Made by a program: the position numbers and the translations under genes. This document shows, in pieces, positions 27,976-58,900 of a stretch of DNA of 64,000 bases (positions within the stretch are counted from its first letter, which is position 1; every line of letters starts with the position of its first letter). Where the stretch lies: assembly GCA_973895155.1 (NCBI GenBank), contig OZ316899.1, positions 829,573-893,572 of the forward strand. The letters are read 5' to 3'. Source of the DNA: Marsupella aquatica. Lineage: Eukaryota > Plantae > Marchantiophyta. The notes beneath the pieces were generated by a model. It saw only the letters and a program-made list of their open reading frames with translations, was not told where the DNA came from and ran no database searches.

Positions 27976-28031
27976 CCTGCTAGATCGGTGCAGTCCTCTA
28001 GCAGGGTCCCTGATCCCACAAAATGAAGGTT

Positions 28032-34068: not shown

Positions 34069-36203
34069 AAATCTCCTACTTCTTCAACGCATAGATCACA
34101 ACATACATTTCCCTTTCCGTTGTGATCCAATGATTTTCCAACTTACATGACTCAAAGGCCACAGGACGCCCATCTTGGTGAAGACAGGCGCCAATAGCAT
34201 AATCACTTACGTCTGTCCAAATCTCAAACGGCTTCCCCATCTGAGGTAACTTTAGAACCGGCGGCATTTATCATTAGCCGCTTAAGTTCTAGGAATGCTA
34301 ACTTGCAATCTTGTGTCCACACAAAAACTTTGTTTTTCAACGTTAGCGCGTTTAGGGGTCTCACGATCCTTGCATAGTCTTTCATGTATCTCCGATAGAA
34401 CCCCGTTAATCCTAAGAAGGCTCTAACCTGCCTTACATTGGACGGGCACTCCCATTCTTTGATCTCCTTAAACTTGTCCTGACTAGGCATAATCCCCTCT
34501 AGGGTAAAGGTATGGCCGAGGAACTGAATCTCATTCATCGCAAACTTGCACTTGCTAGGTTTAGCATAGAGACGAGCCTTACAAAGGTGAGAGAACACTA
34601 CTCTGAGCAACTAACTGCTCATGTTCCTCCAATGTTTTTGAGTAGATTAGGATGTCGTCAATAAAGACGACCACTCCTTGGTCCAACAAGTCATGAAAGA
34701 TGGTATTTATCATCTTCATGAACGTTGCGGTTGCATTACACAACCCGAAAGGCATAACCAAAAATTTGTAGGATCCGAACCTTATGCGCATAACGGTCTT
34801 ATCCTCGTCTCCCTTAGCCATGCGGATCTTGTAATACCCAGACCGCAAGTCCACCTTAGAAAACTTCTTAGCCCTAGAGAGGCAATCAAAGAGGTCATCC
34901 ATATGAGATAAAGGGTACTTGTTCTTTACTATTTGCTTATTGAGGGCCCGATAATCTGCGCACAATCTCAAAGTACCATCCTTTTTGGACACAAATAGCG
35001 CGGGCGCCCCATAAGGACTCTTACTAGGACAAATGAACCCTTGGTCAATCAACTCTTCCAAGGCATTCTTCAACATCATTTGTTCATTCAGGTTCAGATG
35101 ATAAGGAGCTTTAGCCTGAGGAGCCAAACCTGGCTCCAACTCAACTTGGTGATCCACTTCTCTCCGCAGGGGTAAACCTTTAGGTAGCTTCTGCGAGAGC
35201 ATGTCATTGAATTCCTCTAAAATTCAGGAATTCAACCGCAGTCGGGCTCGACCTTAGCTGATTTAACCTTTGGCTACGAAGCAGCCTCCTTAAGTGGGTG
35301 GAGATGAAAGAAGAAAATTCATGTCCACCCTTGAAGTCTTTCCACCATTGCTTTGCCAATACACACGGAGACAACCATGACACTTTACTTACTTTGAGAA
35401 ATCTTCTTTATTTTTGGTAATTTTGTGTACAACGATGGGCTCACTGCCCTTATTGGGAAAATGGAGCACCTCATCCCCTAGTTTCAAGGTAACATTGTGC
35501 TTTCTGAGATAACCTACTAACAAAATGAAGTCTACGGCTAGACCATCTAGAACATAGAACATCTCCTGACTAAAAAAAAATTGTTGTTCGCCTATGACCT
35601 CTACTCAAAGTCTATGTACCACTCTCGACACTATCCCTTTCGTGTCGTTGGCGAACTTGCACACTAACGGTTGTAGAAACTCTTGCACGTTCACCCCAAG
35701 ATGTGCCACCGCCTGCCCGCTTATGAAGTAGGCGGTCGCGCTTGTATCCACCAAAGCAACATCCAGATTACCGTTAGAACTGATATTCACAACAATCAGC
35801 TTTTCAGGATCCCTTGTCTTAACTTTAGGTATCTTCTCTCCGGCAGGAACATCCCCTATAGGGACCTCATCAACTACTAAGGGTTTGGTTAGAGGAATAC
35901 TTACCTTAATGCCCTTCTGCCCTCCATCTCCGCTCAGCTTGCTTCCCTTGAAAGGGAAATCCTTACTTTGATGGCCCATGGCACCACACGTGTAGCACAA
36001 ACCTTCAGCCCGTCTTTGCTCTGTGAGCCCCTGCTTCTTTGCTTTCTGCGCCGATGAGGTTCCTTTCTGAAGTTGTCGGTTTTGCTTAGCTTCTCCATTC
36101 TAGGGCTGGGGATCCAAACCACCACCCCGCGCCCCCTCTGGTTGCTTATGCTTATTCCCGGGACCTTTTGCTTTCCCAGCTTCCCCCTCGGTTCCCTTGC
36201 CAC
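34069..36203 (-). pseudogene. pol: Chromovirus gag end (zinc knuckle), protease, RT and RNase H start; disrupted
   Basis: CYTCGAMGHQSKDF; ALVDTSAT; [45 protein letters not shown]; FLGLTGFYRRY; WTDVSDYAIGACL. Confidence 0.95.
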
Positions 36204-37099: not shown

Positions 37100-37927
37100 C
37101 TAATGCCTGGCACGCTTGCCAGAGCCACCCGAGTGGGAGCAGCTATCCCGCTACCTCCTGAGCCTGTTGGTATCCTGCTTGAGTAGCTGGACCTGGTCCA
37201 GCAAAGATTCATTCTCACGCTTCGCCACGTCCGTCTCTTCCGCGGCCTCCTGACATGCCTCCTCCAGTTGCTGGACGTCGCTCGTCAGCTTATCCACCAA
37301 CTGGGCCTGCTTCGTGGCCTCTCCCTAAAGCAGTGCTACCTCTGTCTTTAGGGTGTCAATCTTGGCTGCGTCCCGCTGAGATCGAGAGTCAGCTTCCTCT
37401 AGATCCTGCTGCCAACTGACAACTTGTCCCTTCAAACCGTCAATCTTGGTCCGGAGCCGTGCGATCTTGGAGTCCTTTTTGAGCCTGGCCTGCTCTGCTA
37501 AGGCTGCCCGGGCCTTGGCCTCGGCAACCTGATCCTCCATGGCCGTTACCTGAGGTCGCAATTGCTAGAGTTCAGTCTCCAAGACTGCCACTTTGTCCTT
37601 TAGGTAGGCAGACTCAACCCGGTATCACTCTATTCTCTGCGCTGTCTCCGCCTACGCATGTCCTGCCTTTACGGCCGCAACCAACTCCTGGTTGAAGAAG
37701 TAGGCCACCTTCCGTGCCATCTATTCCCCGATATCCCATGAGATTTGTTGCAAGAAATCTCCCAACAACCCGTTCAGAAACGTGCTCGGCACAAAGAGTT
37801 CCGGATGGTCCAGACTATGTCCATCTGGTTCGGGCACGGGTGGACCCCAGCCCGCGAGGGAGTAGGAGTGGTGTGGAAAGCCTTTTTTTTGAAGTATTCT
37901 AAGGAGTATTAAATCTACACTTTTCAA
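37100..37927 (-). pseudogene. Coiled-coil protein, disrupted
   Basis: EDQVAEAKARAALAEQARLKKDSKIARLRTKIDGLK heptad-like pattern; several stops; the 3' end (GSGKRARH*) is shared with the copy at ~60760. Confidence 0.5.
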
Positions 37928-39210
37928 AACTTTTGAAGCATTTTAAGTAACAAAATGAAGTCACTTAGAGAAGATGACTCGTAATCATCCACATTAACCT
38001 GACTACCTAGCATGCTGGCCTCTCCTCCAAAGCCCCCGATCTCTTCCTCCAAATATTGTTGGGCTGCTGCTGGTTGACTTTCCTCCACAGGTCCCTCCAC
38101 TTGGGCTCTGTTAGAAGCTCTTAATACCGTCCTCTCCTGGCTTCGGCTTACCTCCTCATCTGTCTCCGAATCCATTTGCTCGTCATATTTCTTTCTCTCT
38201 TCGGCAGTCATCTTCCTTTCGACCAATTGGATGCCTGCATATGGATTATTACGAGTAGGCCAGCGCAACGGATTTCTCACTACTTCATATGTTACTACCT
38301 CTGGCTCCTTGATAGGGGAATGCTCCCATTCTCGTGTTGCCGGTGTTGCCGACCTCCTCCTGTGGCGTCGTTTGCTTAGAGGCTCCTCGACCTCCTCCAC
38401 CTCCTCAAGTGGTGTAGTGATCGGCATCCGCTCCTGTATAGGCAACACCGGTGCAAAAGACTGGCTTCTTGCATATCGGCAAAGTAATTGCAGATGGTAC
38501 CCTAGTCTGGATACCGCTCCCTCCCCAATGCTTTGCTTCTCTTCATTTAATGCCTTCTTCAACTGCATTAAGAGATAGCCGTTGTAGTCTCGGCTTGCAT
38601 CGATATTCTCCACCAAAAATACCTGGACTTTGCCGATTTCTGCTCTCGACAAGGTACAATGCAATATGACTCTTAGGAAATCAATCAGCTGCCCTATATG
38701 CGGGTTGGTACATTGATTCCTGAAAAACCCATTCTTAGTGGAAGGCCCTGGAAATGACCTGAACTGGTCATCCGACAACGTCTTCCTCTGCTCCACCTTA
38801 GTCTTCCTTCCTGTTGGTAAAGCGAAGACGGCTTCGATAAGCGCAGGTGTTAGTTCGAACACCTTTCCATACAGCAGCGTCGTGTTGGAAGAAGCCTCCC
38901 AGCATCCCACGAAGTCCAACAGATCCTCATCTGGTATGTCTACCATCCTCCAGGCCAACCTGACAAAGCCCTCCAACCCAGTGTCATTCATATATCCTGC
39001 ATATTTATTATCCTGAACGACACTGAAGACCTCATCCTCATCTCTTGCAAACTGTAATTGTAAATCGGCAGGTAACCTGTTCGCCCACCTTGTCATGGTT
39101 TTATCCTCTACAGCCCGATCTCTAACTGGCCCGGATTCCATCTTGATTGGTCTCTCCGACCTAGTTCGCTTTGTTGGAGTGGCGGATGCCGAACCTCCCT
39201 TGCGCTTCAT
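37924..39210 (-). CDS. Retrotransposon accessory protein (putative plant-transposon-protein / PMD-like), 428 aa, possibly C-terminally truncated
   Basis: GLEGFVRLAW..LLDFVG..LTPALIEAVFALPTG..KNGFFRNQCTNPHIGQLIDFLRVILH; motifs shared with the 7768 and 50330 ORFs. Confidence 0.6.
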   Translation of the reverse strand: MKRKGGSASATPTKRTRSERPIKMESGPVRDRAVEDKTMTRWANRLPADLQLQFARDEDEVFSVVQDNKYAGYMNDTGLEGFVRLAWRMVDIPDEDLLDFVGCWEASSNTTLLYGKVFELTPALIEAVFALPTGRKTKVEQRKTLSDDQFRSFPGPSTKNGFFRNQCTNPHIGQLIDFLRVILHCTLSRAEIGKVQVFLVENIDASRDYNGYLLMQLKKALNEEKQSIGEGAVSRLGYHLQLLCRYARSQSFAPVLPIQERMPITTPLEEVEEVEEPLSKRRHRRRSATPATREWEHSPIKEPEVVTYEVVRNPLRWPTRNNPYAGIQLVERKMTAEERKKYDEQMDSETDEEVSRSQERTVLRASNRAQVEGPVEESQPAAAQQYLEEEIGGFGGEASMLGSQVNVDDYESSSLSDFILLLKMLQKF

Positions 39211-39899
39211 CTCTTTAGCGCCTTAATACTCCCCAAGAATGGCTTCCTTCGTCCACTTCGTAGTGTGAACCTTCAATTCCCAAAGTGGTTGCCCTACGTT
39301 CTTGATTGCCTCCCTAATCCCCATGACCTTATTCTCCCAGATCAGCAATTTGTCAAGCTCCACACTGGTGGGTGTCCACAAGAACTTTTCCAACACCTCC
39401 TCCGTATCTACGAATGCCATTTTGTGAATTCCCCACAATCGCGCAAGCTCCGCTCATTCTCTGGCTGCGCGCTCCGGCTCAATGTCTTCATACGTAGGTA
39501 TCAACTGCCTTGCTTCTTCAAGCAAACAGCCCCAAAACTTCCCTGCCTGATTCACCGTGTTCATTCCACCGAATGCCAAGAACTTGCACAATCTCCCAAT
39601 CCACCTTAGCACTCGACTGACAGTCGCTCCTCAATGTCAAAACCGTGTACACGAGAATGTGAAATGGCACAGTATTGGTCACCTTACTCCAAAGCCACCA
39701 CTTAGGGGTCCTTGTGATCAAGCATGGATTAGGTCATAACTCCAATCCGCTGGATCTCAACCATTGGATCCTTTCCTTTATTATCTACACGTAGAAATCG
39801 GCATCGATCTTTATTGTTACCTTATACTCTCTATCTACCCTTATTTAGCCATTTTTTTTAGGCTTAGTTATTACTTTGTGATCCTAGCAAGGCATCACA

Positions 39900-41010
39900 A
39901 GTCCCTTGAAGAGGAGCTCATGAACTTGGATGATGAGTTCTTCAAATGCGGAAGAGGAGCTCATGGGAACCGGAAGCGAAGCTGAGTCTGTGGCAAACAG
40001 GGACCCGACTGAAGGGGAAGAACGAGAAAGTGTTACCGCGCAGTCGAGGACCATTCATGTCATGGGCTCAATGAAAGGAAATGGTTATGCTTACCGAGAT
40101 GGATACTGGGCTCGAGCAAGTCCGGAGAGAGAGTGCCAGTTGGAAGGAATGGAAGGCAAGGTGCGGGCGCTCATTGATACTGGCTCGGAGATCAACTTGA
40201 TGGATCCAAAGGTGTTTCAAAAGGGGAATTGGCCGGTGGATAATGAGTTTCTTTGGAGTGTGAACTCGGTGAATTCAATGAAGGACTATCTTTGGGGCGG
40301 ATGTTTGAATGTGATGGTGAAGTTTGGGAATGTCAAGCAGGCTTGTAACATTTTTGTTCATGAGCACTTGTCATTTCCGGTGATACTGGGCATGCCGTTC
40401 ATCACTGAATGGAGGATGGAGACAAAGGTTCTGGACGATACTACCTTCATGGTGAAGGTTCAAGGCAAAGATGATAAGGAGGTGGTTCAGTTTCCGGCGG
40501 TTCTACCTGGAAATGAGAGGAACCAAAAGCAGCTGCGAGATCCGACAGCGGCAGAAGTTGGCATTGCTATGGGGGAGAACCGAGATGCTAAGATGGATCT
40601 AAATGCAGAGTTCAAAGGGGAGCCAATTTTGGACTGAAAGATGGGGAGTCTAGTGTTCAAGGAAGAGTGTTACTTAGGAGAGCTATTGGACATTGGGAAG
40701 TATTTGAGTGACTTTGGGAAGCGGCTGAAACGGGATGGTGAAGAGTTCGAAGACATTTGAGTGAATTCTGATAAGTTCATTCTTAGAGAGGGCTACCTTT
40801 GGCGGAACCTAACGGCCCCATGCTAGTACCGATGAGAGTTGTTGATTCTAAGGATGAGCAAAAGCGGATTTTGGAGGAAGTCTATGATGTTGAGGTCAAA
40901 GGTGGTTTGAAAGGAATAAGGGCGAAGGTCTGTGAGCAGATCCAAATGGAGTATTGGTGGCCAGATTTGTATTGGGATGTTTAGGAGTATGCTGACAATC
41001 GAGGGATCCA
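39900..41010 (+). pseudogene. pol: Tat/Athila-like Gypsy remnant: gag end, aspartic protease, then integrase zinc-binding-like region; RT/RNase H absent
   Basis: KVRALIDTGSEINLM..FPVILGMPF (protease); EQKRILEEVYD...QMEYWWPDLYWDV*EY (resembles the integrase H2C2 region). Confidence 0.75.
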
Positions 41011-41395
41011 TCACAACTTGAAGAGGCAGATTCAAGAGCTTGATCTGATTGACTATCGAGTCGTTGACATACGGGAGAGAGTGAAGGTTTGCAAGGTGCA
41101 AACTAGAGATGAAATGGACTCAAGTTCCGACTTGAGTGAATTTGAAGACGAGGCACTGGTCCAGGCGCATCCGTTGGACTTGAGTTTCAAAAGTGGCCTG
41201 ACTGGTTCTGATTCACATGAGTTGGACTTTGAGTTTTTGGAAAGTGGAGTGCCTAAGGCCGAGTCTGAAGGCTTTGGGTTTGAGTTTCTTGAGGAGGAAG
41301 TGGTCCAGGCGCATGGCTCAATTTTGGACTCAGACTTAGAGGATATCTGATGGATTGAAGCAGACCGGAGGCTGCTCAGGTTTACTGGGGGAGGA

Positions 41396-42207
41396 TGTCG
41401 TGCCGAAAGATTTTGGCTCAGGAATGGCTTTTATAGGGGAGGATGGGCGAGGCCTCCCAGTTGGGTTGCGTGCATGCTGACTTGGAGGGGTTGCTCGGTT
41501 GGATGGATTGAGGTTTGGTGATTGGGTGACTCGTCGTCACCAGGTTTGGTGTTTGGGTGAGTCACCAGGCTTGGAGTTTGGATGAGCCTCGCTGATGGCA
41601 GCTGGTTCAGGCTAGATGGTTGGGTTTCCAATGCTACTTAAGACTTGAGCCTTGGCTCATTGAGGTTGGCAGTTGTCTATTGAGATCTGTTGAGTTGCGT
41701 TCTGTGAGTTTCGCTCTGTTCTGCAGAACTTGACTGTTGTGCGGGGGATTTTAGAGTTCTTGGCAAGTGTTGGATCCAGGTGTGGAGTTTTTGATCCAGA
41801 CGGGGATTTCTCAAGTTTGGAGTCCGGTCGATCCAAGCGGGGATTTCTCGAGTTTGGAGCCTTGTTGGTCCAGGCCCGAGTTCCGTGTGAGCTGTTTTAG
41901 ACTAGTGGAGTAGCTAGTCGAGTTTTGGTTTTGTGAGCTAAGGAGGATAGTTTTTCCGTCAGATTTTGAGTAGTTAGTCACTCGAGGAGTTGTACTCGAC
42001 AAGTTAGAGGTAGCGGCCCATCGTAGGGTCAGCTACCAGACTCTTGCGGGCAAGCTTACTCAAGGGCACCTATTGTAACCTTTGTGAGAAAAGTAAAAAA
42101 TATAAAGGAGTGAGAGTTCGCTCCGAAAAGTGCTTGTTGCCAGTCCCAATTGCAGCCAGAAATGCACAGTTTGCCCAAGGAGCCCCTAACTTTAAGTCCT
42201 CGCGACA
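41396..42207 (+). mobile_element. 3' LTR (812 bp) of the Tat-like element
   Basis: GGGGGAGGA polypurine tract at 41387-41395; TGTCGTG...CGCGACA termini; right end abuts truncated RT sequence. Confidence 0.8.
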
Positions 42208-43200
42208 ACGTCAAAGGTTTTGCAGTTGAACTGAATCCTTTCACATACCTTTGATAGAAGTTTGCAAGCCCCAAAAATGCTCGGACTCTACTCACATCTG
42301 TAGGCTGAGGGATGCCAGCAATTGCCTCCACCTTTGTTTGTTGCACACCCAATCCACCTGGATAAATAGTATGCCCTAAATATGCAATCTGGTCATGGAA
42401 GAACTTACATTTGCCAGGATGCAGCTTCAATCCATGCTCTCTCAACCGCTCAAACACCTGCTGCAAATGTACAACATGCTCCTCCACAGTGTCACTGTAC
42501 ACAATAATGTCATCGATATAACATTTGGCAAAATCCAGGTCTACCAAAATCCAATCCATGACCCTCTGAAACTCAGCTGGCGCATTCTTCAATCCAAACG
42601 GTAAGAATAGCCACTGATACAACACATCCTTCCCATGAGCATCAATCCCCTAGAATGTTGTCTTCTGTCTGTCACCAATTCTAATAGGCAGTTGGTGATA
42701 TCCAGCCCTGAGATCCAATGCGCTAAACACTCTCACATGCCCAATGGCATCAAATATCTCCTCTGGTGTGGGCATGGCATACCTGTCAGACTTAGTCTGC
42801 TGATTAATTGGATGATAGTCTCCACACATCCTCATGTCAGTCCAATTGCCATGCATATCCTTCTTTGCTGGCATCACAGTGGCAGAAGCATACTCACCAA
42901 ATGACTTCTCCACAAATCCTGTTGCCAACAAATCTTGGCACCTTGCCTGAATCAGTGCCCTCTCCATATCGGAATACTGATATGGTCTCCGAAAGATGGG
43001 CGCATCAACTGCCAAATCTATCCGGATGCCTGGTCCCTTTAACATGCCCAAATCCTGCATGCTGAAAGCAAAACAACTTCCATAACTCCATAGAAACTGT
43101 TGTACACGGCGTCTCTCACCTCCAGTGATCTTGGGGCCAATAGTTGGCTCCCAATTGTTAATGGTAACCTCAGCAAAAGGTGCAGAGAACGCCAACCGTG
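42208..43200 (-). pseudogene. pol: Ty3/Gypsy reverse transcriptase (truncated before RNase H by the LTR at 42207)
   Basis: PIFRRPYQYS..YASATVMPAKKD..RMCGDYHPIN..LDLRAGYHQ..LPFGLKNAPAEFQRVM..CYIDDIIVYS..AFLGLANFYQRY. Confidence 0.96.
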
Positions 43201-43379
43201 GTTGCTATGTTGCAACCTCAAGAGCAGCAATACCATGCTGCTGCAAAAAAGAAAGCCCACTGGCCTCTCCACCCCATGAAGTCCAAGGATGACGATCTGT
43301 GGCACTATCGCCTCCTGCTATGATCTATAAGGACCCAATAGAGGAAGAGCATCCATGTTGAGGTGTCACAGATTGTAAT

Positions 43380-44355
43380 CGGCGCTGCTCTGCCAAGGCT
43401 AAGCTCACAATCCAAGTCAAACAATTAAGATCCATAGCCTAACCCAGAATGTGATGGCGTGTTGCTTCAGTCACTGAGGGTACTGCTGTGGGGCGAGTCT
43501 GAAATCCCATAGCACGCTCATGCTCATCGGCAGTAGGTTCCGTCAACTCTCTGTGCTGGGAATCCCAAATTAACCCCGGTCCACCATTACGGTAAGCATA
43601 TGATGAGGGGAAACTCACCAAAGTGGGAAGTGCTGCATGGGGCTGACCAACCCGGTTCACCATTGCCAATGGGGAGCGATCATCGTGACGCACCAACTGT
43701 GCATGCCATCCAGCATCCAAAATGCGGTCCACAGTGAGCCCAATAGGCCGTATAATGTGCTGATATGCCCTCCGCAAAACCTCAGGCGGCATCAAGTTGG
43801 TCCACCATAATCGTGGACGATGTGCTGTTGATCCGACACTAGGAGCATCTAAAAAACAGCAGGTCCTAACCAGGACCTCACTTGGTGCATACTAGCCACC
43901 ATCTGTGACCGAGTATCACCCAACAAGGGAACATTCTCCAGAATGTAGGCAGGAGAGACATGCTGCTGCTCCTGCAAAAACCTCATGACATGCAGCATCT
44001 CCCAAAACATGTGAGAACGATGGTCTTTGAGACCAGATCATGTCCTAGCAGAGGAATGGCCCTGGCATGGCCAACCAGCAATGACAAGGTGAATCTCACC
44101 AATGCGTACTAAATCCGGCGCCCCCAAAAGTGAGATGTCTGTTGGCAAAGCGTGCAGATAACCTCTGATAGCTGATAGAGGCAACAAATCAGGGAACTGC
44201 TAATGCAATTGAGCAACATGATGCAATGAGACACGTCGGGCTGTGTCATCGCGCTCCACATAGAAATACTGCTACACTCTAATGCTAGCATGTAAGACAA
44301 CAGCTAAACCAGTGCTCATGCCACCAAACAATTCCAACAAGCGAATACCCTCAGT
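43380..44355 (-). pseudogene. C5 DNA cytosine methyltransferase domain (DNMT3-like motif order) within the Gypsy polyprotein; disrupted
   Basis: Hand translation: I LLELFGGMSTG; II YVERD; IV IAGWPCQGHS (Cys codon 44065-44067); VI YILENV (43930-43938); VIII HRPRLWWTN; IX EHERAMGF; X RHHILG*AMD. Stops at 44272, 44200, 44038, 43439 and a frameshift at ~43851. Confidence 0.92.
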
Positions 44356-45189
44356 AGGGTAGGTCCACAAAATGGGAGTGGTATCCAAAGGGGACACAAT
44401 GATCAACCTAGGAATGCCATCCACCACAGATGGCTCCGCTAAAGGGGCAAATGGTTGATGCCATGTTGCCTGTGTATATGAATCAGCATGCCATTGTAGC
44501 TCAGGAGTGGAACCCCATACCTGTGGGACAACGGGAATGCTGCAATTACCTGAGGAGTCGTGCAACTGCTCTACTACGGGGATGTCTGCAGCATGGGCAT
44601 TACCCTCCAAGAGATCACCTGGCCAGGTGATAGCTCCAGCACAAGCTGACAAACTAATCACCTTCTCTGGTGATGGCTCAGTCTGACGCAGGAAGTAGTG
44701 GACTGGTAGCTCACACTTCCTACCATCTCCAGACTGCCATCCTGGTCGATAGTGAACAGTCTCTTGCCAGTAATCCAACACAAAGCCCATGGGGTAGAGT
44801 ACGGCTCCCCCTACCAAAACATCATAAGACTCTGCAAGTGTGACAACGGCTCGCACCTTCAAGGTAGAGTCATCTCCAGTGCGGTGGGGATTTAACCTCA
44901 TAGTGAGGTTGTCTCGCATCATGTGCTGTGCCTTCTCTTGGACACCAAGAGATGTATGAATCTGAAATGGGCAAGGCTCCACCTTAGCCTTCTTTAAGCC
45001 CAAGCCCTAGACAGCTGCTTTCCCCAGCATGAGAGGTTGTGCACCTGAATCCAACAATACACGGGGTGGCACATACACTGTGCCACTAGGGCCAACCAAT
45101 GTAAAAACACCAGCATGATTGTCCACCACAACCACACCGGGAGTCACAGCACTTCGATCAATGGCTGGTTTGGCAGGGAGCTCACTCAA
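44356..45189 (-). pseudogene. pol: Retropepsin aspartic protease plus linker of the methyltransferase-bearing Gypsy element
   Basis: RVLLDSGAQPLMLG...YDVLVGGAVLYPMG. One stop at ~45007. In frame with methyltransferase motif I (ORF 44272-45003). Confidence 0.85.
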
Positions 45190-47165
45190 TCAAGCAGCAG
45201 AAGCCTGCCAAGAAGTCTCAACGTCTCTCAACAAAGAATGGCTCGACCTTGTGTCATCTGGGCCAACCGATGGACCAGCTGTGTCATAGCTAGATGGCAA
45301 AACTGCTCCAATATCATACAATGCAGCTACCTGGCGGAACATATCTGCAACAGGAACTCCAAGGGAAGATAATTGAGCACAAGAAAACAATGGAACCTGA
45401 CACAAGGCTCTAGCGGCCCCCAACATTGGGCTAATTACCATGTCAGAATCAATGTTGGGTGGCCCCATGTGATCACAAGAGTGGACAGAAGGCACACTGC
45501 TATCAGCAATGGGTGCCATAGTAGAAGTTTGTGCAGTATCCATCAATGTAAAACTCTGTGGTAATCTCTGTTGTCGGCTGGCCTCCCCTTGTTGTGGATC
45601 CAGCTCCATGGCAGCACCTCGTGGCTCAGCAACCATAGCCACTATTCTGATGACATCTGCACCACTGTCTAATTGTGCAACACCGCACATGTAATCCAAG
45701 TCACTGAATCCAGGAGCAATCTGGGAACTATCCATGGTGTTGGAACTAGAGGCCTCTCCTTTGCTAGGGGCCCGCAACGCCAAATTGGCTGCTGCCAACT
45801 ATTTCTCCAACTCCTGGATCTGGGTGGCTGCTGCAAGATCAGTGCTCTATGCACCGGCTCCGGGGACTACCCTGTCACCTCCACGACCAGGGCGGGGGCC
45901 TCCACGACCTTTAGGAGCAACTCCCCTGCGGGCAGCACCAAAACGCATCTCTGGATGCAGCTCAAAACACCTGTCAATAGTATGCCCATCTCGGTGACAA
46001 TGGTCACAACGCCTAAGATCAGGCTGTCTAGGGGCAGCTCCACCCAGCTCTGCACGTGGTGGACCCTTCCTATCAGGGCAATCACGTTGGTTATGAGGTC
46101 CCTTTCAGCTCTAGCACTCCACCTGAGTGGCATAAGAGGGCTGAAAGGGACGTTGGGGTGCTGTTGCTCTCCTGCCACCAGCAACAGCACCACTAGGAGC
46201 ATTGGATAGTGCCCTCCCTGGCACATTCCCCAATCGATGTGGCTGCTGCCCACCAGATGGACTAGCAGCACTGCCTCCAGGGGACTCCTTGCCAAATCCA
46301 GGGTGATAACCTTCTTCTCTGACCGGTTCATGTCAATGGTATCAGAAAGCAGGAAAACTTTCTCCAGTGTCAGTTTCTCATCAGTGGCCAACGCCAAAAA
46401 CCAAACCCGGTTCCTCAAATCCTTATCCAGGGCCTGGTACCAAATTTGGATAGCCTGAGCATCAGTAATGCCCTCCGTGGTATTGATCAACCGCCTCATG
46501 CGCGTGTATGCCTTGCGCAAACTCTCACCCTCCATCCGGCTGAATGTCTGGAGACTCAACAACTTGTCCACGCAGACACCCTGGTAATTCTTCTTCAACA
46601 CCTTGAAGAACTCCACCATCGGGTTGAACCTGGGGATTGACAACAATGTGCTAGCACCCTCTTCCTCCTTTGAGGACACGTCTTCACCTGTGAGTGAGAC
46701 GTAATCTGGAGACCACTTGCGTCTCCAAGACTCAATGTGCTCAGCATACATCGTCTAGAACTCCTCATAGTCATGCATGGGTGGCCCCTCCAAGTGCTGG
46801 AACAATGCCCGCCATGCCATGAAAGGGGAGAATGTCGTGCTGTGTAACTTTTGTTGATCACACCACCGCTCAAACTCCATAATGAAATGTGGCAACTCCA
46901 TGGTGCCAACATCTCCCGAAAACCTCTGAATCCGACTATCCGTGGAATGCTCCATGTCCCAATTATAGGGACTAATGCGTGAATACAGTGACAACTGGGA
47001 CAGTAATCGAGTCGCCTCCTCCACGGCAGGGTCAGTGCTAGTGCTACGCCTAGGTGACACAATGCCTTCTTCTACCTCCAATGGTCGAAATCGGGCACCA
47101 CTGCGAGTCACTCCTATCTCCAGTTTGGCTATGCAGCAAACTGTGGCACTCCTGCTGCACAACAA
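45190..47165 (-). pseudogene. gag: gag of the methyltransferase-bearing Gypsy element, with an intact CCHC zinc knuckle (45967-46008) and a second degraded one
   Basis: VTRSGARF..FSGD..FIMEFERWC; LQTFSRMEGESLRKAYTRM; CDHCHRDGHTIDRC in an alternative frame to the ORF track. Confidence 0.85.
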
Positions 47166-48289: not shown

Positions 48290-50765
48290 TCCTGTCACAA
48301 ATTCCGTCACCAAATCCCGTCAGAAAACCGTCAACGACGAACCAGAATTCCAACAAACATTAACAGCGCATAACGTCCACCTCTTAAGCTATTTTTCACT
48401 CAAACTTCACCAATGCAACCGCATTGGCATGCTCCATCCAAAATTGCAATAAAATTTCTAGTGGTCATCCATCCAACAGAGTTTCTACCCAAATTTGGGC
48501 ATAGCTTCCGCACGACCTTTGCTCATCACAAAAAATCTGCAGCAAGCCTTCCTCTCTAACCAGCAATGAACAGAGGTTTTTGCACAACCATTCAATCGGC
48601 GCATACAATGAGTATAGCTTCTCCGCATCAACGATTTGCGATGAAAGTGCAACCAGATTTCAAGAAATTCAGAGTTGAAATCAGAATACTCTCACTGATT
48701 TTTGACAGCGCTTCCGCGTCCAGATACGTGTTGCCAACCAGCAGCATCAACCAGCGATCAGCAAATGCCCACCAACGATCGACACCAACAAACAAACGGA
48801 TGAATCACCGAGCTCCACCAAGCACCTTTACTGGTCCGCATAGTTCAGAAAAACTGAGAGCATCCGCTCTCCTCCCCTCATTCTTCCAAGTAATCTCTTG
48901 CGAAACGGGACCCCGCTGCAAGGTATCACTAAGTCGACCCAAACTCACCCGCTAGCCATGCGGGACTCCAAGTCTATACACATAGCAGAACTCTGCCAAT
49001 GTTGCTCTACATGCCAACCGGCATATACTCTCTCTCTCTCACCATAGCCACACTCACATGAGCTCTACTAGTGCCGAGAGGCTCAACTTGGAAGAATGAG
49101 GAGCTAATCCCTCATTCTCCAAGGTATACCCCCATGGCACAAGGCATGGTAACCTGGGTGAAGAGGTCACCCCTACCAGGTGACCTGCTATGCCGGGTCA
49201 CCCTCCCAAACTCACAACACATGTGCAACCAACAAAGTTGCAACTCAAATGCAACATGGGGTGACACGGACCCTTTGGGTCCGTATAACAAATTCTTGAA
49301 GGCGGCTGCTGACACGCTCTGAACCGGACCCGCGGGTGGCCAGTACACTATGAGCGTGAAAAGCTCGGCCTATAGGAAGGGAGGAGGGGCCAGTCGAACA
49401 ATGAGCTCTTAGAGTATAAAAGGAGGGCCATTCTCTCGCATTACACCCACACTCCATTCCATGCGCCAGCTTCAATCTCAGCCACTTTGTCCCTCCTTAA
49501 TTGCCCACCGTCACTCCTGGATGTCTGTCACAATATTGTCCAGTTCAGCCCTTCAATTTTGGCTGCAATTCCTATCCGTGGGAAATCACTTAGCCAAAGT
49601 CAACCCGCGCCGATACGAGACCAAACGAGCTTACGAGAGAGCCATTCGCTTAGCCGGCCGTAATCACTATAACGGCAATTTCAACCTCCCATTCCAGAGT
49701 GAGCTTTGCCGAGTCAACAAAATCAGCAAGTACTTCTTTGTCGACGAGAAGTACGTTGGTTTTTGGAAGCGCTCCTTTGGCTTCCGGACAGGGTTTACCA
49801 TCTCTCGGGCATGATAGACTTGCAGCCGCACCACTACAAATAACATATCCCCACCCCAGTTCAAGCATCCATAGATTGTCAGTTTGGCCCTACCCAAACA
49901 AGCGAGACTCCTATCTTAACAACACTCAACTTCCCCAGGGACTTCCTGAATCTAATGGCGCCTCCTCTAGCTGCAACTGGTGCCAATTTGTCGGTACCTG
50001 CGCCAACACCGCCTCGGCCTCAGCCAGACCGATCTCCACCACCGGTCGCACCACCTCTCCAAGTGAATCCATGGTAAATGCAGTAAATATTAGCTCCAAA
50101 GACGAGGAGGCTCACCCTCCCCTGAACCGACGGCCGCGGGGGGATAACACGGTGACTGTAAGCAACCCCAACATCGATACTCACGGCGGTAGCGCTAACG
50201 CCATCCAACCGGAAGGATGTTGAGATGTCCCCCTCTTCTACTCACCCCGGGAATCAGTCCCGGGGTAGGAAGAGAAAGTAACCCGCAGTTGTATCTGAGC
50301 TACCTTTGGCCACGGTTGCGGTGCCCAAGCTGACCATGCATCGCATGGGGGAGAATGTTCACAAGAACATCCTCCATCCCAAGCATGCATGCTACTTGAA
50401 GACCCAAGGGTTTGAGCACCTTGCCTCTCTCCCTTGGAATGGAAGCAGGTACTACAGGCAGGATATAACGGAGTTCATTAAGAACTTTGACGAGGCCCGC
50501 CAACAAACCCGAGTGCACGGGAGAGTGATGTGTCTCAATGAGGCACGTCTAAAGATGATTTTTGGCCTACCCAAAGGAATAAACCGGGTAGAGTAACGGG
50601 ACCCTGGGGGCAAGGGAGCTAAATACCAGTCCTCTAGCTTTCCAACCGAGGGAGAAGTGGACAACGGATTCTTGATGAGGGCGTGCCTCATCCCGGAGGT
50701 AGCAGAACGCCTAGAGTTCCAGCGGTATGCCCTCCACATGATGGAACCACGGGGCGAAATATCTG
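48290..50765 (+). mobile_element. Unit D: LTR-like region (TATAAAAGG at 49415) followed by accessory ORFs, truncated by junction to chromovirus gag; left boundary uncertain
   Basis: TATA box, small ORF 49461-49814, and accessory ORF 50330-50765 that breaks off into gag-like sequence. Confidence 0.4.
50330..50765 (+). pseudogene. Retrotransposon accessory ORF of the same family as 7768 and 37924; truncated
   Basis: GFEHLASLPW..ITEFIKNF..LKMIFGLPKG..*..DNGFLMRACLIPEVAERLEFQRYALH. Confidence 0.6.
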
Positions 50766-50779
50766 GGTTGGGCCGGTTG

Positions 50780-53700
50780 GGGGCCCCGAGCGGCATTCAG
50801 ACCCGAGGGCCTAGGCATGAGCACTGGGTCGGCCCGGTCACAACAGCTAAGGCACTCCGCTTGCGGATGCCTATCAAGAAAGTTATGGGCGTTGCCAGTT
50901 GGTGGCGCGCCATTATGCGCGATGGGATCCGGGTTGGGGGCCAAATGTTTAGGGACCAAAGTTGGTCCGGGGGTGGCAGGTCTCCAGAAGCATATATGAG
51001 GGGAGTGGTGTCACCCTGGGGGCTAAGGCCGAGCCGAAGTCGTGAGCCGTGGCGGTCGCGACACTAAGGGAAACTGTCAAACGGAAATGGCGATATCTTC
51101 CCAACGGGAAGTCCGTTGGAGGACTTCTTGGGTGCGTTGGAAAGCTCTTGAGGAGGGCTATGCCCTACTGAGCTCAGATGGGTCAACTTTAATAAAGGAG
51201 CCTCATCGGCACAGAAAGCAAAGAAGCAGGCCACCATGGAGCAGAGGCGGGCTGAAGGTTTGTGCTTCACATGTGGTGCCATGGACCATCAAAGTAAGGA
51301 TTGTTCCACAAAAGGTGGCAAACCAAACAGAGATGGTGGAGGGCAGAAGAGCATTAAGGTAAGTATTGCTCTAACCGAACCCTTAGTAGCTGACAAGGTC
51401 CCTGTAGGGGATGTCCCTGACGGAGAGAGGGTGTTGTTGCGAGAGAAGATACCTAAAGTTAAGACAATGGATCCTGAAAAACTGATTTTTGTGAATGTCA
51501 CTTCTAACGGTAATCCGGGTGTTTCTTTGGTGGATACAAGCGCGACTGCCTGCTTCATAAGTGGGCAGGCGGCAGCTCGTCTTGGGGTGGACGTGCAAGA
51601 GTTGCTACAACCGTTAGTGTGCAAGTTTGCCAACGACACGAAGGGGATAGTGTCGAGAGTAGTGCATAGACTTCGAGTAGAGGTCATAGGAAAACAACAA
51701 AATTTTGTTAGTCAGGAGATGTTCTACGTTCTAGACGGTCTAGCCGTAGACTTCATTTGTTGGTAGGTTATCTCAGAAAGCACAATGTTACCTTGAAACC
51801 GGGGGGTGAGGTGCTCCATTCCCAATAAGGGCGGTGAGCCCATCGTTGTACACGAAATTACCAAAAATAAAGAAAGATTTCTTAAAGTAAGTAAAGTGTC
51901 GTGGATGTCTCTGTGTGTATTGGCGAAGCAATGGTGGAAAGACTTCAAGGGTGGACATGAATGTTTCTTCTTTCATCTCCACCCAACAAAGGAGGCTGCG
52001 ACCCTAAAGGTCAAGTCAGCTAAGGTCGGGCCCGACTGCGGTCGAATTCCTGAAATTTTAGAGAAATTCAATGACGTGCTCTCGCAAAAGCTAGCTACCT
52101 AAAGGTTTACCCCCGCGGAGAGAAGTGGATCACCAAGTTGAGTTGGAGCCGGGATCGGCTCCTCAGGCTAAAGCTCCTTATCGTCTGAACCTGAACGAGC
52201 GAATGATGTTGAAGAATGCCTTGGAAGAGCTGATCAACCAAGGGTTCATTCGCCCTAGTAAGAGTCCTTACGGGGCGCCCGCGCTGTTTGTGTCCAAAAA
52301 GGATGGTACTTTGAGATAGTGTGCAGATTACCGGGCCCTCAATAAGCAGACGGTAAAGAACAAGTACCCGTTACCTCATATGGATGACCTCTTTGATTGC
52401 CTCTCCGGGGCTAAGAAGTTTTCAAAGGTGGACTTGCGATCTGGGTATTACCAGATCCGCATGGCTAAGGGAGACGAGTATAAGACCGCGATGCGCACAA
52501 GGTTTGGATCCTATGAGTTTTTGGTTATGCCGTTCGGGTTGTGTAATGCAACCGCAACATTCATGAAGATGATGAATACCATCTTTCATGACTTGTTGGT
52601 CGTCTTTATTGACAACATCCTAATCTACTTGAAAATGTTGGAGGAGCATGAGCAGTTGCTCAGAGAAGTGTTCTCTCTCCTTTGTAAGGCTCGTCTCTAT
52701 GCTAAACCTAGCAAGTGCAAGTTTGCAATGAACGAGATTCAGTTCCTTGGCCATACCTTTACCCCGGAAGGGATTACGCCTAGTCAGGACAAGCTTAAGG
52801 AGATCAAAGAATGGGAATGCCCGTCCAATGTAAGGCAAGTTAGAGCCTTCTTAGGATTTACGGGGTTCTATCGGAGATACATGAAAGACTATGCGAGGAA
52901 CTTTCCCAAAGTGGTAATCCACACAGATAGCTCGCCGGCCGGGTACTTCAATTCTAAGCCAAGGCTGAACCCCAAGGAAATGCGCTGGAAAATGTTCTTG
53001 GCGAATTTTGATTTCGAAGTCTGCCACGTTCCAGGGAAGACAAATAGGGCAGCGGACGCGTTATCGCGTAAGGACCAACATCTTGTCAATGGGATCACGA
53101 TGCTCGAATCCGAGTGGCCAAAGGTTCTGGCCGCAGCGTGTGGGGATGACAGGTTAGCTAAGGAATGGCAAAGCAATGGGGGTAGCCAAGGCAAGGTAAG
53201 GCACGTATCGTTGGGGTTGGATAAGACGCATAATGTCCAGTTATGGCGATACAAATAGAGGCGTGTGTACATACCGGAGTCTCTAAGGTTAGAGGTTCTG
53301 CAAAAGTACCACGACTCGCCCTAGGGAGGGCATGGAGGACAAGCCGCTACGTATCGTAGCATGTTGCGAGATGTGTATTGGCCGGACATGAAGCAATCGG
53401 TCCTTCAACACGTGCAAAGTTGTTACTCGTGCCAAAAGAACCAAACGGTCTATAGGGCAAAAGGAGGACTACTACAACCTTACCAGTAGCTGCGGCTCCA
53501 TGGGAGTCTATCTCCATGGACTTCATTGTTGGGTTACCTGAGTCCCACGACAATAACTCCATCTTAACAATCGTGGATCGTTTTTCCAAGATGGTGTATT
53601 TCTTGCCTACTACGAAGATGGTTTCGGCCCGAGAGGTTGCCGGTCTAGTATTTGACAATGTCTTCCGACAATGGGGATTGCCGTTGAATATCCTGTCCGA

Positions 53701-54600
53701 CTGCGATACCAAGTTCACGGGCCATTTTTGGAAGGCGTTGTTCCGGTTATCCGGAACAGACCTGACTAGGGGATCAGCGTATCATCACAAGACAGATGGC
53801 CAAACAGAACGGGTTAATGGTATTGTGGAGGACTACTTGCGTCACTTTGTGACGGCCAATCAGAAGGATTGGGCAAAGCATTTAACAATGGCCGAGTTTA
53901 GGTATAACTTGACCAAGCATTCGGCGATGGGGTTTGCGCCATTTGTGTTGGCCACAGGGAGGACGCCAAGGGCGCCCCCTTGGTTTATAAATCCGGAAGC
54001 TTGGCGGACGGAAAGCAAGGTTCCTTCTGCGGACAATTTTATTCGAGAGCGGCTCCTAGTTGCGGAAGCGGCTACCAAGTGTATGACCCTTGCCCAAAGT
54101 TGGTACAAGGAGCAAGGGGATAAACATCAACGCCAGGTAAGCTTTGAAATTGGGGAGAGCGTCTGGTTGCAGTTGAGACCTGAGCAATACCACGGGAACA
54201 TAAGTAGGAAGCTGGCTCCCAGATATGCGGGGCCCTATCGCATTATACGATGGGCCCACAAGGATAATCGGGTTCTGGTGGTGTTGGAGACACCCAAGGA
54301 AATGGGCGTGGGTAAAAGCTACCATGTTAGCCGGCTCAAGAAGTTTGTCAAAGACGATGATCCCAACCGGGATCAGGTCTTGCGTCCGGACGCCATGCTG
54401 GTGGAGGACACTGAGGAGTTTGAGGTGGAGGCAATTCTGGACCACCATTACAAACGCAAGTTGGGAAGGCAAATCTTAGAGTATTTGGTGAAGTGGGCTG
54501 GCTATGACACGCCGAGAGTACTTGGGAACCGGAGGAAAATTTGGGTAATGCCTCAGAGATCCTTGGAAGCTATCGTAAGCAAAGCGGCCTACCGCCGTTG
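50780..54600 (+). pseudogene. pol: Chromovirus gag end-protease-RT-(RNase H deleted)-integrase-chromodomain, second copy; disrupted
   Basis: CFTCGAMDHQSKDC; SLVDTSAT; [18 protein letters not shown]; MDFIVGLP..GQTERVNG; FEVEAILDH..YLVKWAGYD. Homologous to 22081-23795 plus 34069-36100 in inverted orientation. Confidence 0.95.
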
Positions 54601-55037
54601 TGAACTGGTACAGGCAACTATAGCTACCTTTGTGAGTTGTATCCTAGTTTCACTCCTCTTGGCCTCTTAAGGATAAAGTCGGATTGCGTTGGTGCTAGAG
54701 GTTGTTGGGCGGCCGATTTGCTTTTTGCGAGTGGAAGTTGATGGTGCCCGCCCTACATCTGTGGGCGGGCTAGTTCAAACCAAAGGGGAGCGCCCCAAGG
54801 GGAGGACAATGGGTCCGACGAGTTTGGAGTGAGCTTGCCCGTTTGGACTGGCATCCTACTTGGATAAGTGGGATAGGTTGGAATTTCCTAAGTTTGGAAT
54901 GCACATATCAACCTAGTTTGCATCAGCCTTATGGGCAAACCATTTGTTACCTCATAAAAATTTTAAGGCCCAAAGTGGTCTAGGCGTGTTGGAACGTTTA
55001 TTGAGGTCATGCGGACGTGACCATTTTTAAGGGGGGG

Positions 55038-55166: not shown

Positions 55167-55965
55167 ATGAGACGTGGCACTAGCAAGGCAAGGGGCCAAG
55201 CTGGGGGCACACACTAAGGACTTGGACTAGCCTATGGCTGGTCGGGTCAAGGGCAAATGGGCCGGGCTCAAGGATGGTCGTCTGGACCGTCGGATGGGCT
55301 TTGAGTTCTGAGGGCTTGGGAGTGAGCTCCTCTTGGGCCCAAGGCCAATGGAGTGTTCAATTGGTTCACTCCTTGTAGTGGGAGAACAAAATTTTGATAT
55401 GATATGTGTGATCCTCAATGGATCAATTTGGACTGTGTTATATCCACAGTGAGCCTAATGTGTTTGTCTTGCATGATCATGATGCAAGTTTACTTGATGA
55501 TTTTGTAAAGAACAAGATCATATGAAGCTTATTTGCCAATGTATTGGTGAGTCACTTTCTTTTGATTGAATTTGCAGTCATTTGATGTCAGTGTGACATG
55601 ATTTCAGGTGTAAACATGTAGCATTACATTGCTGCAGACTCATGGTGTGCTATCTCAATAGATATATTACAACAACCAGGAAACTCGAATGGTGTATTGT
55701 AAGTAGTGGGTATTTCCAAAATCATGAAGAAACGGAAAATTTTTAAATTTTTTATGGGGTTTAACCTCTAATTGTTGATAACAGAACGGAGATAGCATTC
55801 TGTCTACAAGTTACGGTTCCCAAGTTTAAAGTAAGTTTACGAGTAAACTCCAATTACTAGTTACGAGTTACTAGTTACGAGTTACGAGTTACGGGGTTGC
55901 AACAGTATACTAGTTACGACTTACTAGTTAGGCCTTTACGAGTTGGCGACCGATGATCGCGACGT

Positions 55966-58900
55966 CACTAGAAGAATCCGAGGTGAACTGAGACCGCAAT
56001 ATATGACTCATTTTGGCTCATGTGACTTCATTGTGACTCAACGTGACTTGACCCACGCTGTGACCCTTGGAGTTGCAAAAGTTGAGACCAAAAAATGGAA
56101 GTCACTATTGATACTGGGCTTTGCAACTTGCTTGATACCCATTTGTGACTGATCTGTGACTTTATTGTGGAGTCTAGCCTTGTTTCGACGTGACTGCAAT
56201 ATGACTTCAGCGAGTCACATCGTAAGTCACATACATGACTTGCCCGCATTCAACAACGACTAGCGTGTGACTATTTAGTGTCACAGGAGAGACCAATGGA
56301 GACCCTGGCCCGCGTCACACAACAGAACCATTTGGGACTCTATATACTCATGTTTATAACTAATAAGGTTCACATGCAAGTTATAACCATGACTAATGAA
56401 CACAGAGGGACAGTTCATAAGGAGAGAGAGCACTCGACATTACAATACATAGAAACCTGATGTTCTAACTTTAGAAATATAACACATTCAATACAAGAAA
56501 TGAACATAGCATGAATGACATCCACATGAAACAAAGCATCACATAAGCAGATCCTACATAAAACATTCATAAGAATTAAACACAATCACAATCTTGCTAA
56601 AAAATGAAGATCATTTGAATTCCAATGGAATAGTTTACAATGTGATCAATGTAATTTAGACAAAACAGGAACTCATAATTGATGACTGTAGGATGAGATA
56701 ACTGAAAGCACATGCATGATACTATGAATCTCCAAGAGGACATGATTCTTGTACTGCTTCTTGACATCTAAAATCTACATAACATGACTCACACTACAAA
56801 CAAATAATGGCATGACATTGTTATGGATCCTCTATGAACTTGCTTGGCCATAATACCAAAGAACCTGCAGCATCTCCAAGTGTCTTTTGAGGAGGATCAT
56901 CATTTGTGTTTGGAATGGGAAGGACAGCTTTAGGTTTCACTAGTAATGTGACTAACACTACTGAATAACCTGGGGGAATCCTCTTGCCATGGAACGTTGT
57001 GGAACCAACCTGCACTCTGGCAAATCCTACTCGTGTTCCACTCTCATCAACAGCTAACAAGCCACTTTGTCCCTCAGCATTAGGTGCTTTCCCCACTTCC
57101 ACCTTAGATCTTTCTGCCAGCACTGTTCTTGGAGGTTTGTATGAAACCTTTGACGTGGCTCTGCTCCCACCAACAGACTTGCTTCGTGTGCGCATGCTTC
57201 CTCTCTTCACAGTAGTGAAGCTAGGCTCAGTAGGTTCCTCTGTTAGGACTGTCACAGTAGCAGGTTCATCACCTGGGAGTGTCATACCAACTAACTCTTT
57301 GGTTGGATTTATCTCAACAAGAGGCACACCTGTCATTGAGAATGATACATTCTGCAAATCATTTATCTCTGCAATGGAGTCAAGATCTACATAGCATGAA
57401 TCTGGCTCAATGGTATCATTGTCATGCTTGCTGATATCCTCATTTGCCCCAACATTGATATCATCCACTCCCTTGCCAATGTCATCCTCATCCAAACATG
57501 GTTGACTGCCCTCTGTCAAACAAGTTGCTTGTATAGACTGCAACTTTGTTGCCTCTAAATTACAGCGAGTATTTGCCAGGTTCTCATACTTCTTCTCTGT
57601 AGCACCTGTCTTATTCTCTATGGACACAACAACCACAATATATGTTACTGAAAATAACACATTCAACAAACAATGTCAATTCAAACTATACATTTAATAA
57701 TCATATCCCACACAGTTGTAAAGGCGTTACCTTCAAGCCTACATGTCGTTGGCATGCCAGAAGAGTGCATCGACTTTGCCACCTCAAGTGGTGATGGTGG
57801 AACTCCTGCAGAATTGGAATCAATTTTATCTCTCACCGACACAACAGCTTCCATTAATGTCTTGAAGTTCACATGGAACAAGTCAGTCAATGAATTCAAA
57901 CGTTCATTGATCTCTGGAAGACATGTTTCGACAGCCTTCAAACGACCACTTATCTCTGTAAGTGAAGATCCACCTCCCTACATGACACAGGGGTATAGGT
58001 TCAATCACTCCATATGAAATGTTGGGCAATATATGCACAATCAATGTTATATACAGTGTACACCTGAAATTCAACGCAGGTCATTCAATTACCAATCAGA
58101 ACTCATATAACTTACATGCTTGGAGGATTCAGATGCACCCTCTTGAGCCCGGGTGTTCACAATTTCAGCCCTCAACTCTTCTTTTGAAGGGCTTTGCCCC
58201 AATTGGGCTTTCTGCACATGCATGGCAAACACAAGTTATCGATCAATATTCAGGGAACGTACACTAAAAAACAAAGTTTACATGTATGGGTTTACACTAA
58301 AAACAGTACATAGTGTAGCATAAATTACATAGCTAGGCCATTCATTCTTACCAAACGTTTAGCTGTCGGTGCAGTGCCGGTCCTTCCTGTCAGATTAGGG
58401 TTCTGAACACTCAACCTGGCCTCGGTCATCTGCGAACTCTTCTTTTTTGAAGCATCTGTTACAAAATAAGCTACTAACCTTGCCCACACTTTATCATCAC
58501 AACTGGCTGGTGGAGGCATATCTGGCTTCTCCCCACCTTCCTTCCAAGCCTTATGCATTCTCCACCTCTCTTGCTTGATAATTTTACCTGCTGTACTCTC
58601 TAGGCAACCTATGTCCACACCATCATCACTGCCCACATAATTCCATTTGGCAGCAACATTTTCACATACAGTCTTCCAATCTTTTGGATGTTGTTTTTTA
58701 AAATTAATAACACTCACATCTAACCAACGCAATACTTCAGCTTTCAAATCAGCATGCCATCGGTTCTTGCGAGGACACTCAGCATCCACCCATTGTCTCT
58801 CATTCAACTTTATGTTCCCTTTCTTTGTCACCTCCCCTCGTGCACTGCTCTCGGTAGTATTGGGCGTTGTATTGGCCACCCCTTCATTCACCCTACCTGG

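Follow-up and report, generated by a model that had tools for sequence, protein, structure and literature searches.

Can a DNA methyltransferase be a standing part of a land-plant retrotransposon, and if so, how is it made and on which DNA does it act? This question is raised by a 64,000-nucleotide stretch of the liverwort Marsupella aquatica (contig OZ316899.1, positions 829,573 to 893,572), here called the window. Its minus strand holds a decayed copy of a Ty3/Gypsy element, in which gag and protease are followed by a DNMT3-type C5 cytosine methyltransferase (MTase) and then by reverse transcriptase (RT). The idea of a DNA methyltransferase (DNMT) in a Gypsy element is already in print, and the precedent named in the original prediction for this locus, an element of Klebsormidium, is real (PMC5890265). 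Added here, from sequence comparison, are a land-plant range, a conserved site of likely translational readthrough, and an end structure that points to integration from circles.

A Ty3/Gypsy family carrying a methyltransferase

Six-frame translation recovered every motif quoted in the original prediction, on the minus strand and at the places and in the order given there. The CCHC knuckle (46008-45967) and the protease LLDSGA (45057-45040) are followed by the MTase motifs LLELFGG (44340-44320), YVERD (44262), GWPCQG (44076-44059), LENV (43941), RPRLWWTN (43819), ERAMGF (43519) and ILG*AMD (43450-43430), and finally by the YIDD of RT (42520). An open reading frame (ORF; 44272-45006) links the protease tail to MTase motif I, as had been claimed. 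For Pfam scans the coding pieces were translated with X at stops. The first half of the MTase (43852-44370) is recognised by PF00145 with 35.4 bits (cut-off 22; E=1e-8), and 42200-43324 hits RVT_1 at E=1e-30. For the protease only a weak hit was obtained, below cut-off at E=0.006; gag and the second, C-terminal half of the MTase, each taken alone, matched no Pfam family, and this MTase half also had no match in PDB.

Judged by its sequence, the MTase (43373-44340) is of the DNMT3 type, intronless and non-permuted. A profile of 16 MTase sequences matched DNMT3A (5e-15) ahead of DRM (2e-7), M.HhaI (4e-4) and DNMT2 (1.5e-3). The circularly permuted DRM enzymes thus score far below DNMT3, and the window motifs run from I to X in the normal order. 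For the intact relative P0006, AlphaFold gave a model (pLDDT 93.8, from a 72-row alignment) that matched DNMT3A with E=6e-19 and TM scores of 0.64/0.81, and only DNMT3A, B and C were among the matches listed. From motif I to X the window MTase measures 911 nt, compared with 909 and 912 nt in the uninterrupted relatives L011 and L078, in agreement with the earlier claim that it has no intron. The DNMT3 of host plants is described as a stand-alone gene with a C-terminal DUF3444 (PMC6453930). The window element has neither feature, and Pfam scans of the window and its relatives found no DUF3444.

The MTase belongs to an element family. Of 497 candidates from a search with its N-terminal half, 42 proteins share 40-68% identity with it, and those that carry a species name come from Marchantia polymorpha, Calypogeia fissa and two Sphagnum species; the Marchantia protein P0008 aligns across gag, protease, MTase and linker. 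A metagenome scan gave 124 confirmed loci, of which we used the best 80; at 98% identity, 65 of these are distinct. Many of them show the layout gag, knuckle, protease, DNMT, RT, RNase H and integrase, the last two domains being known from relatives only. The integrase is of the rve (DDE) type in ORF2 of L078. Its C-terminus lacks a chromodomain in the family relatives and is followed instead by a PHD finger (24 tblastn rows in 23 loci; Pfam PHD in L078). Contigs of five public sequencing runs from two organisms cover the stretch with many diverged copies. A viral contig scan gave four pattern matches and no confirmed one, and protein searches and cluster look-ups returned no Klebsormidium-named protein.

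A one-off chimaera, in which a processed host DNMT3 pseudogene ended up in a Gypsy copy, would fit an intronless, DNMT3-like domain. It is refuted by the recurrence of the domain in the same position and frame in dozens of metagenome loci and in named bryophyte proteins. The missing DUF3444 also speaks against a host origin of this kind, as do the other copies in the host runs, which differ from the window copy at its MTase stops. The chimaera is thus left with next to no probability, and the element family assumed in the original prediction stands.

In a quick tree of 43 MTase rows (16 duplicate rows dropped), the window and the proteins of Marchantia, Calypogeia and Sphagnum fall together in a clade of 15 rows (SH-aLRT 100); Klebsormidium, host DNMT3 and DRM sequences are outside this tree. 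In an RT tree of 46 rows, the stop-bearing rows discussed below group at 92/84, far from the chromovirus RTs of the window; named Ty3 lineage references such as Phygy are outside this tree. In 72 of the 94 two-domain proteins fetched (cluster duplicates included), a related DNMT3-like domain stands in another order, RT-RNase H-DNMT-integrase-PHD. The proteins of this second architecture (P0061-P0075, P0151, P0163-P0207 and others) are all metagenome or assembly records, 22 of 59 were taken into the RT tree, and the sampled rows form one clade in both trees.

In live copies the enzyme was very probably catalytically active. The catalytic cysteine is kept in all 65 rows that cover its site. Pairwise MTase dN/dS is 0.15 for window and L041, 0.17 for window and L011, 0.15 for L041 and L011, and 0.09 for L075 and L078, with dS (1.3-1.9) near saturation, so that these ratios are rough. 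Two observations point the other way. Among close, decayed moss-type copies, pooled pN/pS reaches 0.57 in the MTase and 0.58 in the protease, whereas gag, RT, RNase H and integrase lie at 0.37-0.43. The arginines of motif VIII, whose codons we read as CpG-prone, are replaced in 22 and 17 rows out of 66. Either decay after insertion or weaker recent selection may account for both the higher MTase ratio and the arginine changes.

The stop codon before the reverse transcriptase

The original prediction took the stops of this copy as decay. For one of them this does not hold: comparison with the relatives identifies the TAG at 43207-43205, between MTase and RT, as a conserved feature of the family. 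The junction is spanned by 58 of the 80 loci (51 distinct). All 58, as well as the window, have a stop followed by CAR-YY in the RT frame. A frame-anchored search found the motif in 56 of 58 rows (57 loci and the window); the two misses have an insertion just behind it, and the omitted locus, L051, has the motif too. The stop is TAG in 36 loci and TAA in 22, and the hexamer behind it is CAA CCC in 52 of 58 and CAA CTC or CAA CCT in two. Exact CAR-YYA is found in L035, L041, L075, L078 and the window itself, where TAG is followed by CAA CCA (43199-43207). As a background, CARYYA follows 10 of the 5906 stop triplets in the window. Across lineages with 48-70% protein identity the second codon varies between CCA, TCA and TTA (P, S and L), so the nucleotide pattern has outlasted the amino acid.

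CAR-YYA is the signal of tobacco mosaic virus (TMV), described as sufficient alone for readthrough (PMC2194720), with a readthrough of about 10% in TMV and leakage also at UAA in this context (PMC2754532). A full TMV-type site, with in-frame UAG and CAR-YYA, is present in the window, L041, L075 and L078. The otherwise uninterrupted L078 consists of ORF1 (1369 aa), TAG CAG TTA and ORF2 (1047 aa). Its first ORF2 methionine is residue 117, well inside the conserved region next to RT, which begins at residue 22. At the protein level, the C-termini of Marchantia P0008, P0011 and P0015 and of Calypogeia P0005 lie 96-98 aa past motif X, as in the moss-type ORF1.

A conserved in-frame stop before RT makes ORF1 a Gag-protease-DNMT frame. 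The MTase is thus joined to the protease in a polyprotein, as originally predicted, but it does not simply lie within one Pol; it ends ORF1. We hold with good confidence that Pol, consisting of RT, RNase H, integrase and PHD finger, would be made by readthrough. At a rate near that of TMV, about ten times as much MTase as RT and integrase would be made.

Several observations sit uneasily with this reading. The commonest lineage has CAA CCC (52 of 58), without the final A, and an in-frame ATG two codons later. The stop is TAA rather than TAG in 22 of 58 loci, and it is not universal, as the deeper relatives P0060 and P0153 have MTase and RT in one frame with no stop. Moreover, the private window stop at 44202 is also followed by CAR-YY, by chance. 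Pol could instead come from splicing, reinitiation or an internal promoter, with the stop as an ordinary terminator. The CAA CCC ATG of the moss-type lineage would suit such an origin, and Candida Tca2, which has a gag/pol stop, is reported to have a promoter at the junction (PMC2194720). However, the ATG behind the stop is absent in the window, L041, L075 and L078, the MTase and RT frames stay in register, and YYA is kept despite the amino-acid changes. The Marchantia gene models P0014, P0023, P0027 and P0033 bridge the junction, which would also favour it, yet they join MTase to RT at differing points, as would be expected of automatic predictions around a stop. These joins are probably predicted introns that skip the conserved stop. 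Altogether, we regard an origin of Pol other than by readthrough as quite improbable.

A stem-loop behind the stop was considered and dropped. Its fold reached z=-2.6 in the window and -0.5 to -2.2 in five relatives, and no helix beside the stop was common to the relatives.

Element ends and proposed life cycle

The coding parts lie within the extent originally given (42208-47165), but the element reaches further upstream, to a 5' repeat that begins at 49266. How such an element ends is best seen in relatives. The complete loci L042 and L048 have split direct repeats: A1 (about 340 bp), the coding region, a polypurine tract, B1 (about 115 bp), two bases, A2 and B2. The 3' part of this A-B-A-B layout is also present in L011 and L019, and five loci (L030, L035, L043, L050, L056) have the shorter form, A...B. 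A 4-bp target duplication lies outside the A-start (TG) and the B-end (CA) in all eight loci with both ends, six exact and two with one mismatch. Phygy is described as preferring NCGN, with which these duplications do not agree. The terminus TGTCA is common to the moss-type loci, L075 and L078, and the junction ACGACA-NN-TGTCA is intact at B1/A2 in L011, L019, L042, L048, L075 and L078. In the relatives the polypurine tract abuts the B-start and the priming arm abuts the A-end. The A-end is joined to the B-start (A2/B2) in L019 and L042.

In L078 and part of the moss-type loci, a stretch within A, 20-34 nt past a TATA-like box, is complementary to the bases right behind A1. The window has the same arrangement, with box and arm at offsets matching those of the relatives. 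A1, the putative left element end, starts with TGTCAC and occupies 48892-49266. Hairpin arm 1 (49086-49101) lies 28 nt past a TATA-like box, where the transcript is predicted to start, and forms a perfect 16-nt inverted pair with arm 2 (48876-48891), the predicted primer binding site directly behind A1. The 16/16 complementarity of 49101-49086 and 48891-48876 is followed by TGAGCC, as in moss-type loci. This arm-pair score was reached by none of 200 shuffles and none of 71 window tiles, and the RNA fold of 48860-49110 (z=-4.96) by none of 200 shuffles. Plain alignment of the A1 candidate with the moss-type repeat was not significant (score 31; shuffles 25 +/- 3.8, maximum 42), and the assignment of A1 is thus based on the layout common to window and relatives. 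These observations suggest that reverse transcription is probably self-primed by the 5' hairpin.

From these parts a replication cycle can be proposed. Readthrough of UAG-CAA-CCA would yield RT-RNase H-integrase-PHD as the minority product, and the DNMT3, made at Gag-like levels, would likely be packaged in the particle, where it would likely methylate the new cDNA copies of the element. For this chain as a whole, from the Gag-protease-DNMT3 first frame to methylated cDNA, we lean in favour; that the element's own cDNA is the main substrate has, in our view, an even chance. During reverse transcription, the priming site would set the right cDNA end at the A-end, and the polypurine tract the left end at the B-start, which makes B+A the true long terminal repeat (LTR). 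The cDNA ends would then be joined into a circle, and the DDE integrase would open the palindrome-like B/A junction. A two-LTR circle would give A-internal-B-A-B and a one-LTR circle A-internal-B; the two forms predicted are the two seen in relatives. Integrases of foamy virus and HIV-1 have been reported to cut palindromic junction sequences, in a source that also calls two-LTR circles dead ends in retrovirology (PMC2884000). Circle joining, opening at B/A and these two outcomes are, on the end structure, reasonably likely.

Some facts limit this proposal. The window has no 3' half, only A1 being left, so that repeat layout and target duplications are known from relatives only. Of the 23 moss-type A1 repeats, no more than 14 have the hairpin arms where they are expected, and the DNMT3 domain of the Klebsormidium element, KnitGypsy-Dnmt3, gave no methylation in yeast (PMC5890265).

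The A-B-A-B ends could also have arisen when copies inserted in tandem, recombined once integrated or were collapsed by the assembly, with the element integrating as ordinary linear cDNA. Repeats do collapse in short-read metagenome contigs, L078 looks circularly permuted, and A...B copies could arise by recombination between B1 and B2. Ordinary linear integration is difficult to reconcile, however, with the 4-bp duplication at A-start and B-end in all eight two-ended loci when the polypurine tract lies at the B-start and the priming arm at the A-end. The linear cDNA ends, B-start and A-end, are moreover found joined inside the element at A2/B2 (L019, L042), and an A-B-A-B layout is also reported for the Klebsormidium element (PMC5890265). 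We consider integration as linear cDNA unlikely. A similarly low probability is given to the view that the main target of the DNMT, abundant through its fusion to Gag, is host chromatin or the insertion site rather than particle cDNA, or that it serves as a decoy that binds DNA. Expression at Gag level, as the conserved stop suggests, would supply the enzyme in large excess over the need of a single cDNA. A chromatin reader, the PHD finger, stands at the end of the integrase, and DNMT3 is described as the main CHH methyltransferase in Physcomitrium (PMC6453930); both fit a host-chromatin target. By general retroelement biology, though, fusion to Gag and protease would place the DNMT in the particle, the site of reverse transcription. 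SymbioDIRS-Dnmt3 methylated both episomal and genomic DNA in yeast (PMC5890265), which does not separate the two targets.

Taken to its full extent, the proposal of particle-borne methylation and circle insertion describes an old streptophyte Ty3 lineage that has gone on amplifying in this host, in liverworts and in peat moss, with DNMT3-loaded particles, self-priming, methylated cDNA and insertion from circles. We offer this complete picture as a tentative one, with a lower probability than its parts.

The window copy, known systems and significance

The window copy itself is dead, but its family is live-looking. Four stops (44274, 44202, 44040, 43441) and one frameshift (near 43853), the tally of the original prediction, are correct for the MTase, not for the whole copy, which has 13 stops in coding frames besides 43207 and frameshifts near 46299 and 43850-43856. 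Among the differences listed, the diverged copies in the sequencing runs depart from it at the four MTase stops and at 43327 and 45009. Its gag N-terminal, capsid-like part (46287-46928; one stop and the frameshift near 46299) aligns by tblastn with residues 12-248 of Marchantia P0008 at 50% identity. Two zinc knuckles follow (45967-46116), one broken (46116-46078) and one intact CX2CX4HX4C (46008-45967), and zf-CCHC is above cut-off in the relatives P0132 and P0052. The aspartic protease (44686-45162; stop at 45009) is 62% identical to P0008. RT (42209-43156; stop at 42652) is 64% identical to the intact ORF2 of L078 and is cut before RNase H by the end of an unrelated high-copy repeat on the plus strand (41300-42207, ending in CGCGACA). 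A depth step and loose ends at 42207 mark this truncation in contigs of the public runs. RNase H and integrase, which the original prediction gave as lacking in the copy, are missing for this family from the entire 64-kb window; no B end, 3' repeat, polypurine tract or B/A junction motif was found within it either, nor a partner repeat for 41300-42207.

CpG and CHG observed/expected ratios are 0.37 and 1.17 in the window copy (42200-47000), 0.27 and 1.22 in L041, and 0.58 and 0.68 in the moss-type L011. Depletion of CpG only in the window copy and L041, versus both contexts in L011, hints at different host methylation.

The surroundings are rich in other repeats. The truncating repeat (37924-42207) has a protease ORF on the plus strand (39924-40637, weak Pfam match) and a 432-aa ORF on the minus strand (37924-39222) with no Pfam match. 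A chromodomain-bearing Ty3 element with rve, SH3_Tf2-1 and Chromo domains lies at 51152-54670 on the plus strand. Parts of it recur in inverted orientation at 21517-23771 and 34367-36075, and identity between the copies is about 88%. A 2.3-kb inverted pair (2-2277 and 55964-58250) is 90% identical, and five 408-bp tandem units and a 13/20-bp minisatellite occupy 3374-5660 and 32595-33076. Decayed ORFs at 24067-29554 on the minus strand are presumably of an L1-type LINE with endonuclease and RT, and we take the ORF at 11595-12599 to resemble a DNA-transposon transposase.

The closest known system is KnitGypsy-Dnmt3 of Klebsormidium nitens (de Mendoza et al. 2018, PMC5890265). As described there, it has in common with our family the Ty3/Gypsy domains, an intronless, non-permuted DNMT3-like domain and DIRS-type split repeats, here complete in L042 and L048. 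Purifying selection on its DNMT is given as Ka/Ks < 0.2, next to 0.09-0.17 between our lineages at near-saturated dS and 0.57 (pN/pS) among close, decayed copies. Its host is an alga, the hosts of our family are land plants, and, according to the authors' reply to reviewers, its DNMT lies in one ORF with RT and RNase H, whereas here a stop stands between them. The accessible text of that paper makes no mention of readthrough, self-priming, a PHD-tipped integrase, 4-bp target duplications or circle integration. Common descent is likely because the repeat layout is common to both. We nevertheless treat the family, compared by published description, as a variant that would work like KnitGypsy-Dnmt3 rather than as a tested member, because the DNMT does not share an ORF with RT.

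Other systems resemble single parts of the element. SymbioDIRS-Dnmt3 and the PAT/Ngaro-type elements also have A1-B1-A2-B2 split direct repeats (PMC5890265, PMC4157794); SymbioDIRS carries a DNMT3 domain that methylates CG de novo in yeast (PMC5890265). DIRS, PAT and Ngaro elements are described with a tyrosine recombinase, in contrast to the rve (DDE) integrase and 4-bp target duplications found here. SIRE1, Tca2 and MuLV are stop-separated retroelements (PMC2194720, PMC2754532), to which our family is likened by a TMV-type in-frame stop with CAR-YYA and a long product as the minority. The known cases, however, lie at gag/pol or pol/env, while here the stop follows a captured DNA methyltransferase, before RT, and readthrough is predicted. 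Tcn1 and the Tf1/sushi elements are self-priming Ty3 elements in which the transcript start is complementary to a site behind the 5' repeat, instead of a tRNA site (PMC6317226). Our family differs from them in having a PHD finger and no chromodomain, split repeats and a DNMT domain, with an RT far from the chromovirus RTs of the window. EpiLTRs are LTR elements with a cytosine methyltransferase too (bioRxiv 10.64898/2026.05.21.726589), but they are reported to carry DAM, a chromodomain and a DNMT4-related enzyme, none of which was seen in this family.

In our literature search, with most subscription journals outside it, no description of land-plant copies, of the readthrough site or of circle integration was found. 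The term 'Gypsy-Dnmt3' occurred in two papers, and later papers, in the parts accessible, speak only of 'streptophytes' (PMC12344493; bioRxiv 10.64898/2026.05.21.726589).

What DNMTs carried by retrotransposons are for has been an open question since 2018. The sole printed Gypsy example is algal, with an enzyme inactive in yeast, a result its authors call inconclusive. Apparently complete Gag-protease-DNMT models in Marchantia (Mp_4g09160, Mp_8g17980) make the question testable in a genetic model. The conserved stop predicts an enzyme that is abundant relative to RT and integrase, which constrains its possible role. Element-borne genes of this kind inflate DNMT counts in bryophyte annotations, and the ends of such elements are likely missed by standard finders of paired LTRs. 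The end structure predicts integration from circles, which are viewed as dead-end products in retrovirology (PMC2884000). If this is true, the family would be an integrase retroelement with circles as its normal precursor, and land plants, of which angiosperms are reported to lack DNMT3 (PMC6453930), would have in it a mobile source of cytosine methylation de novo.

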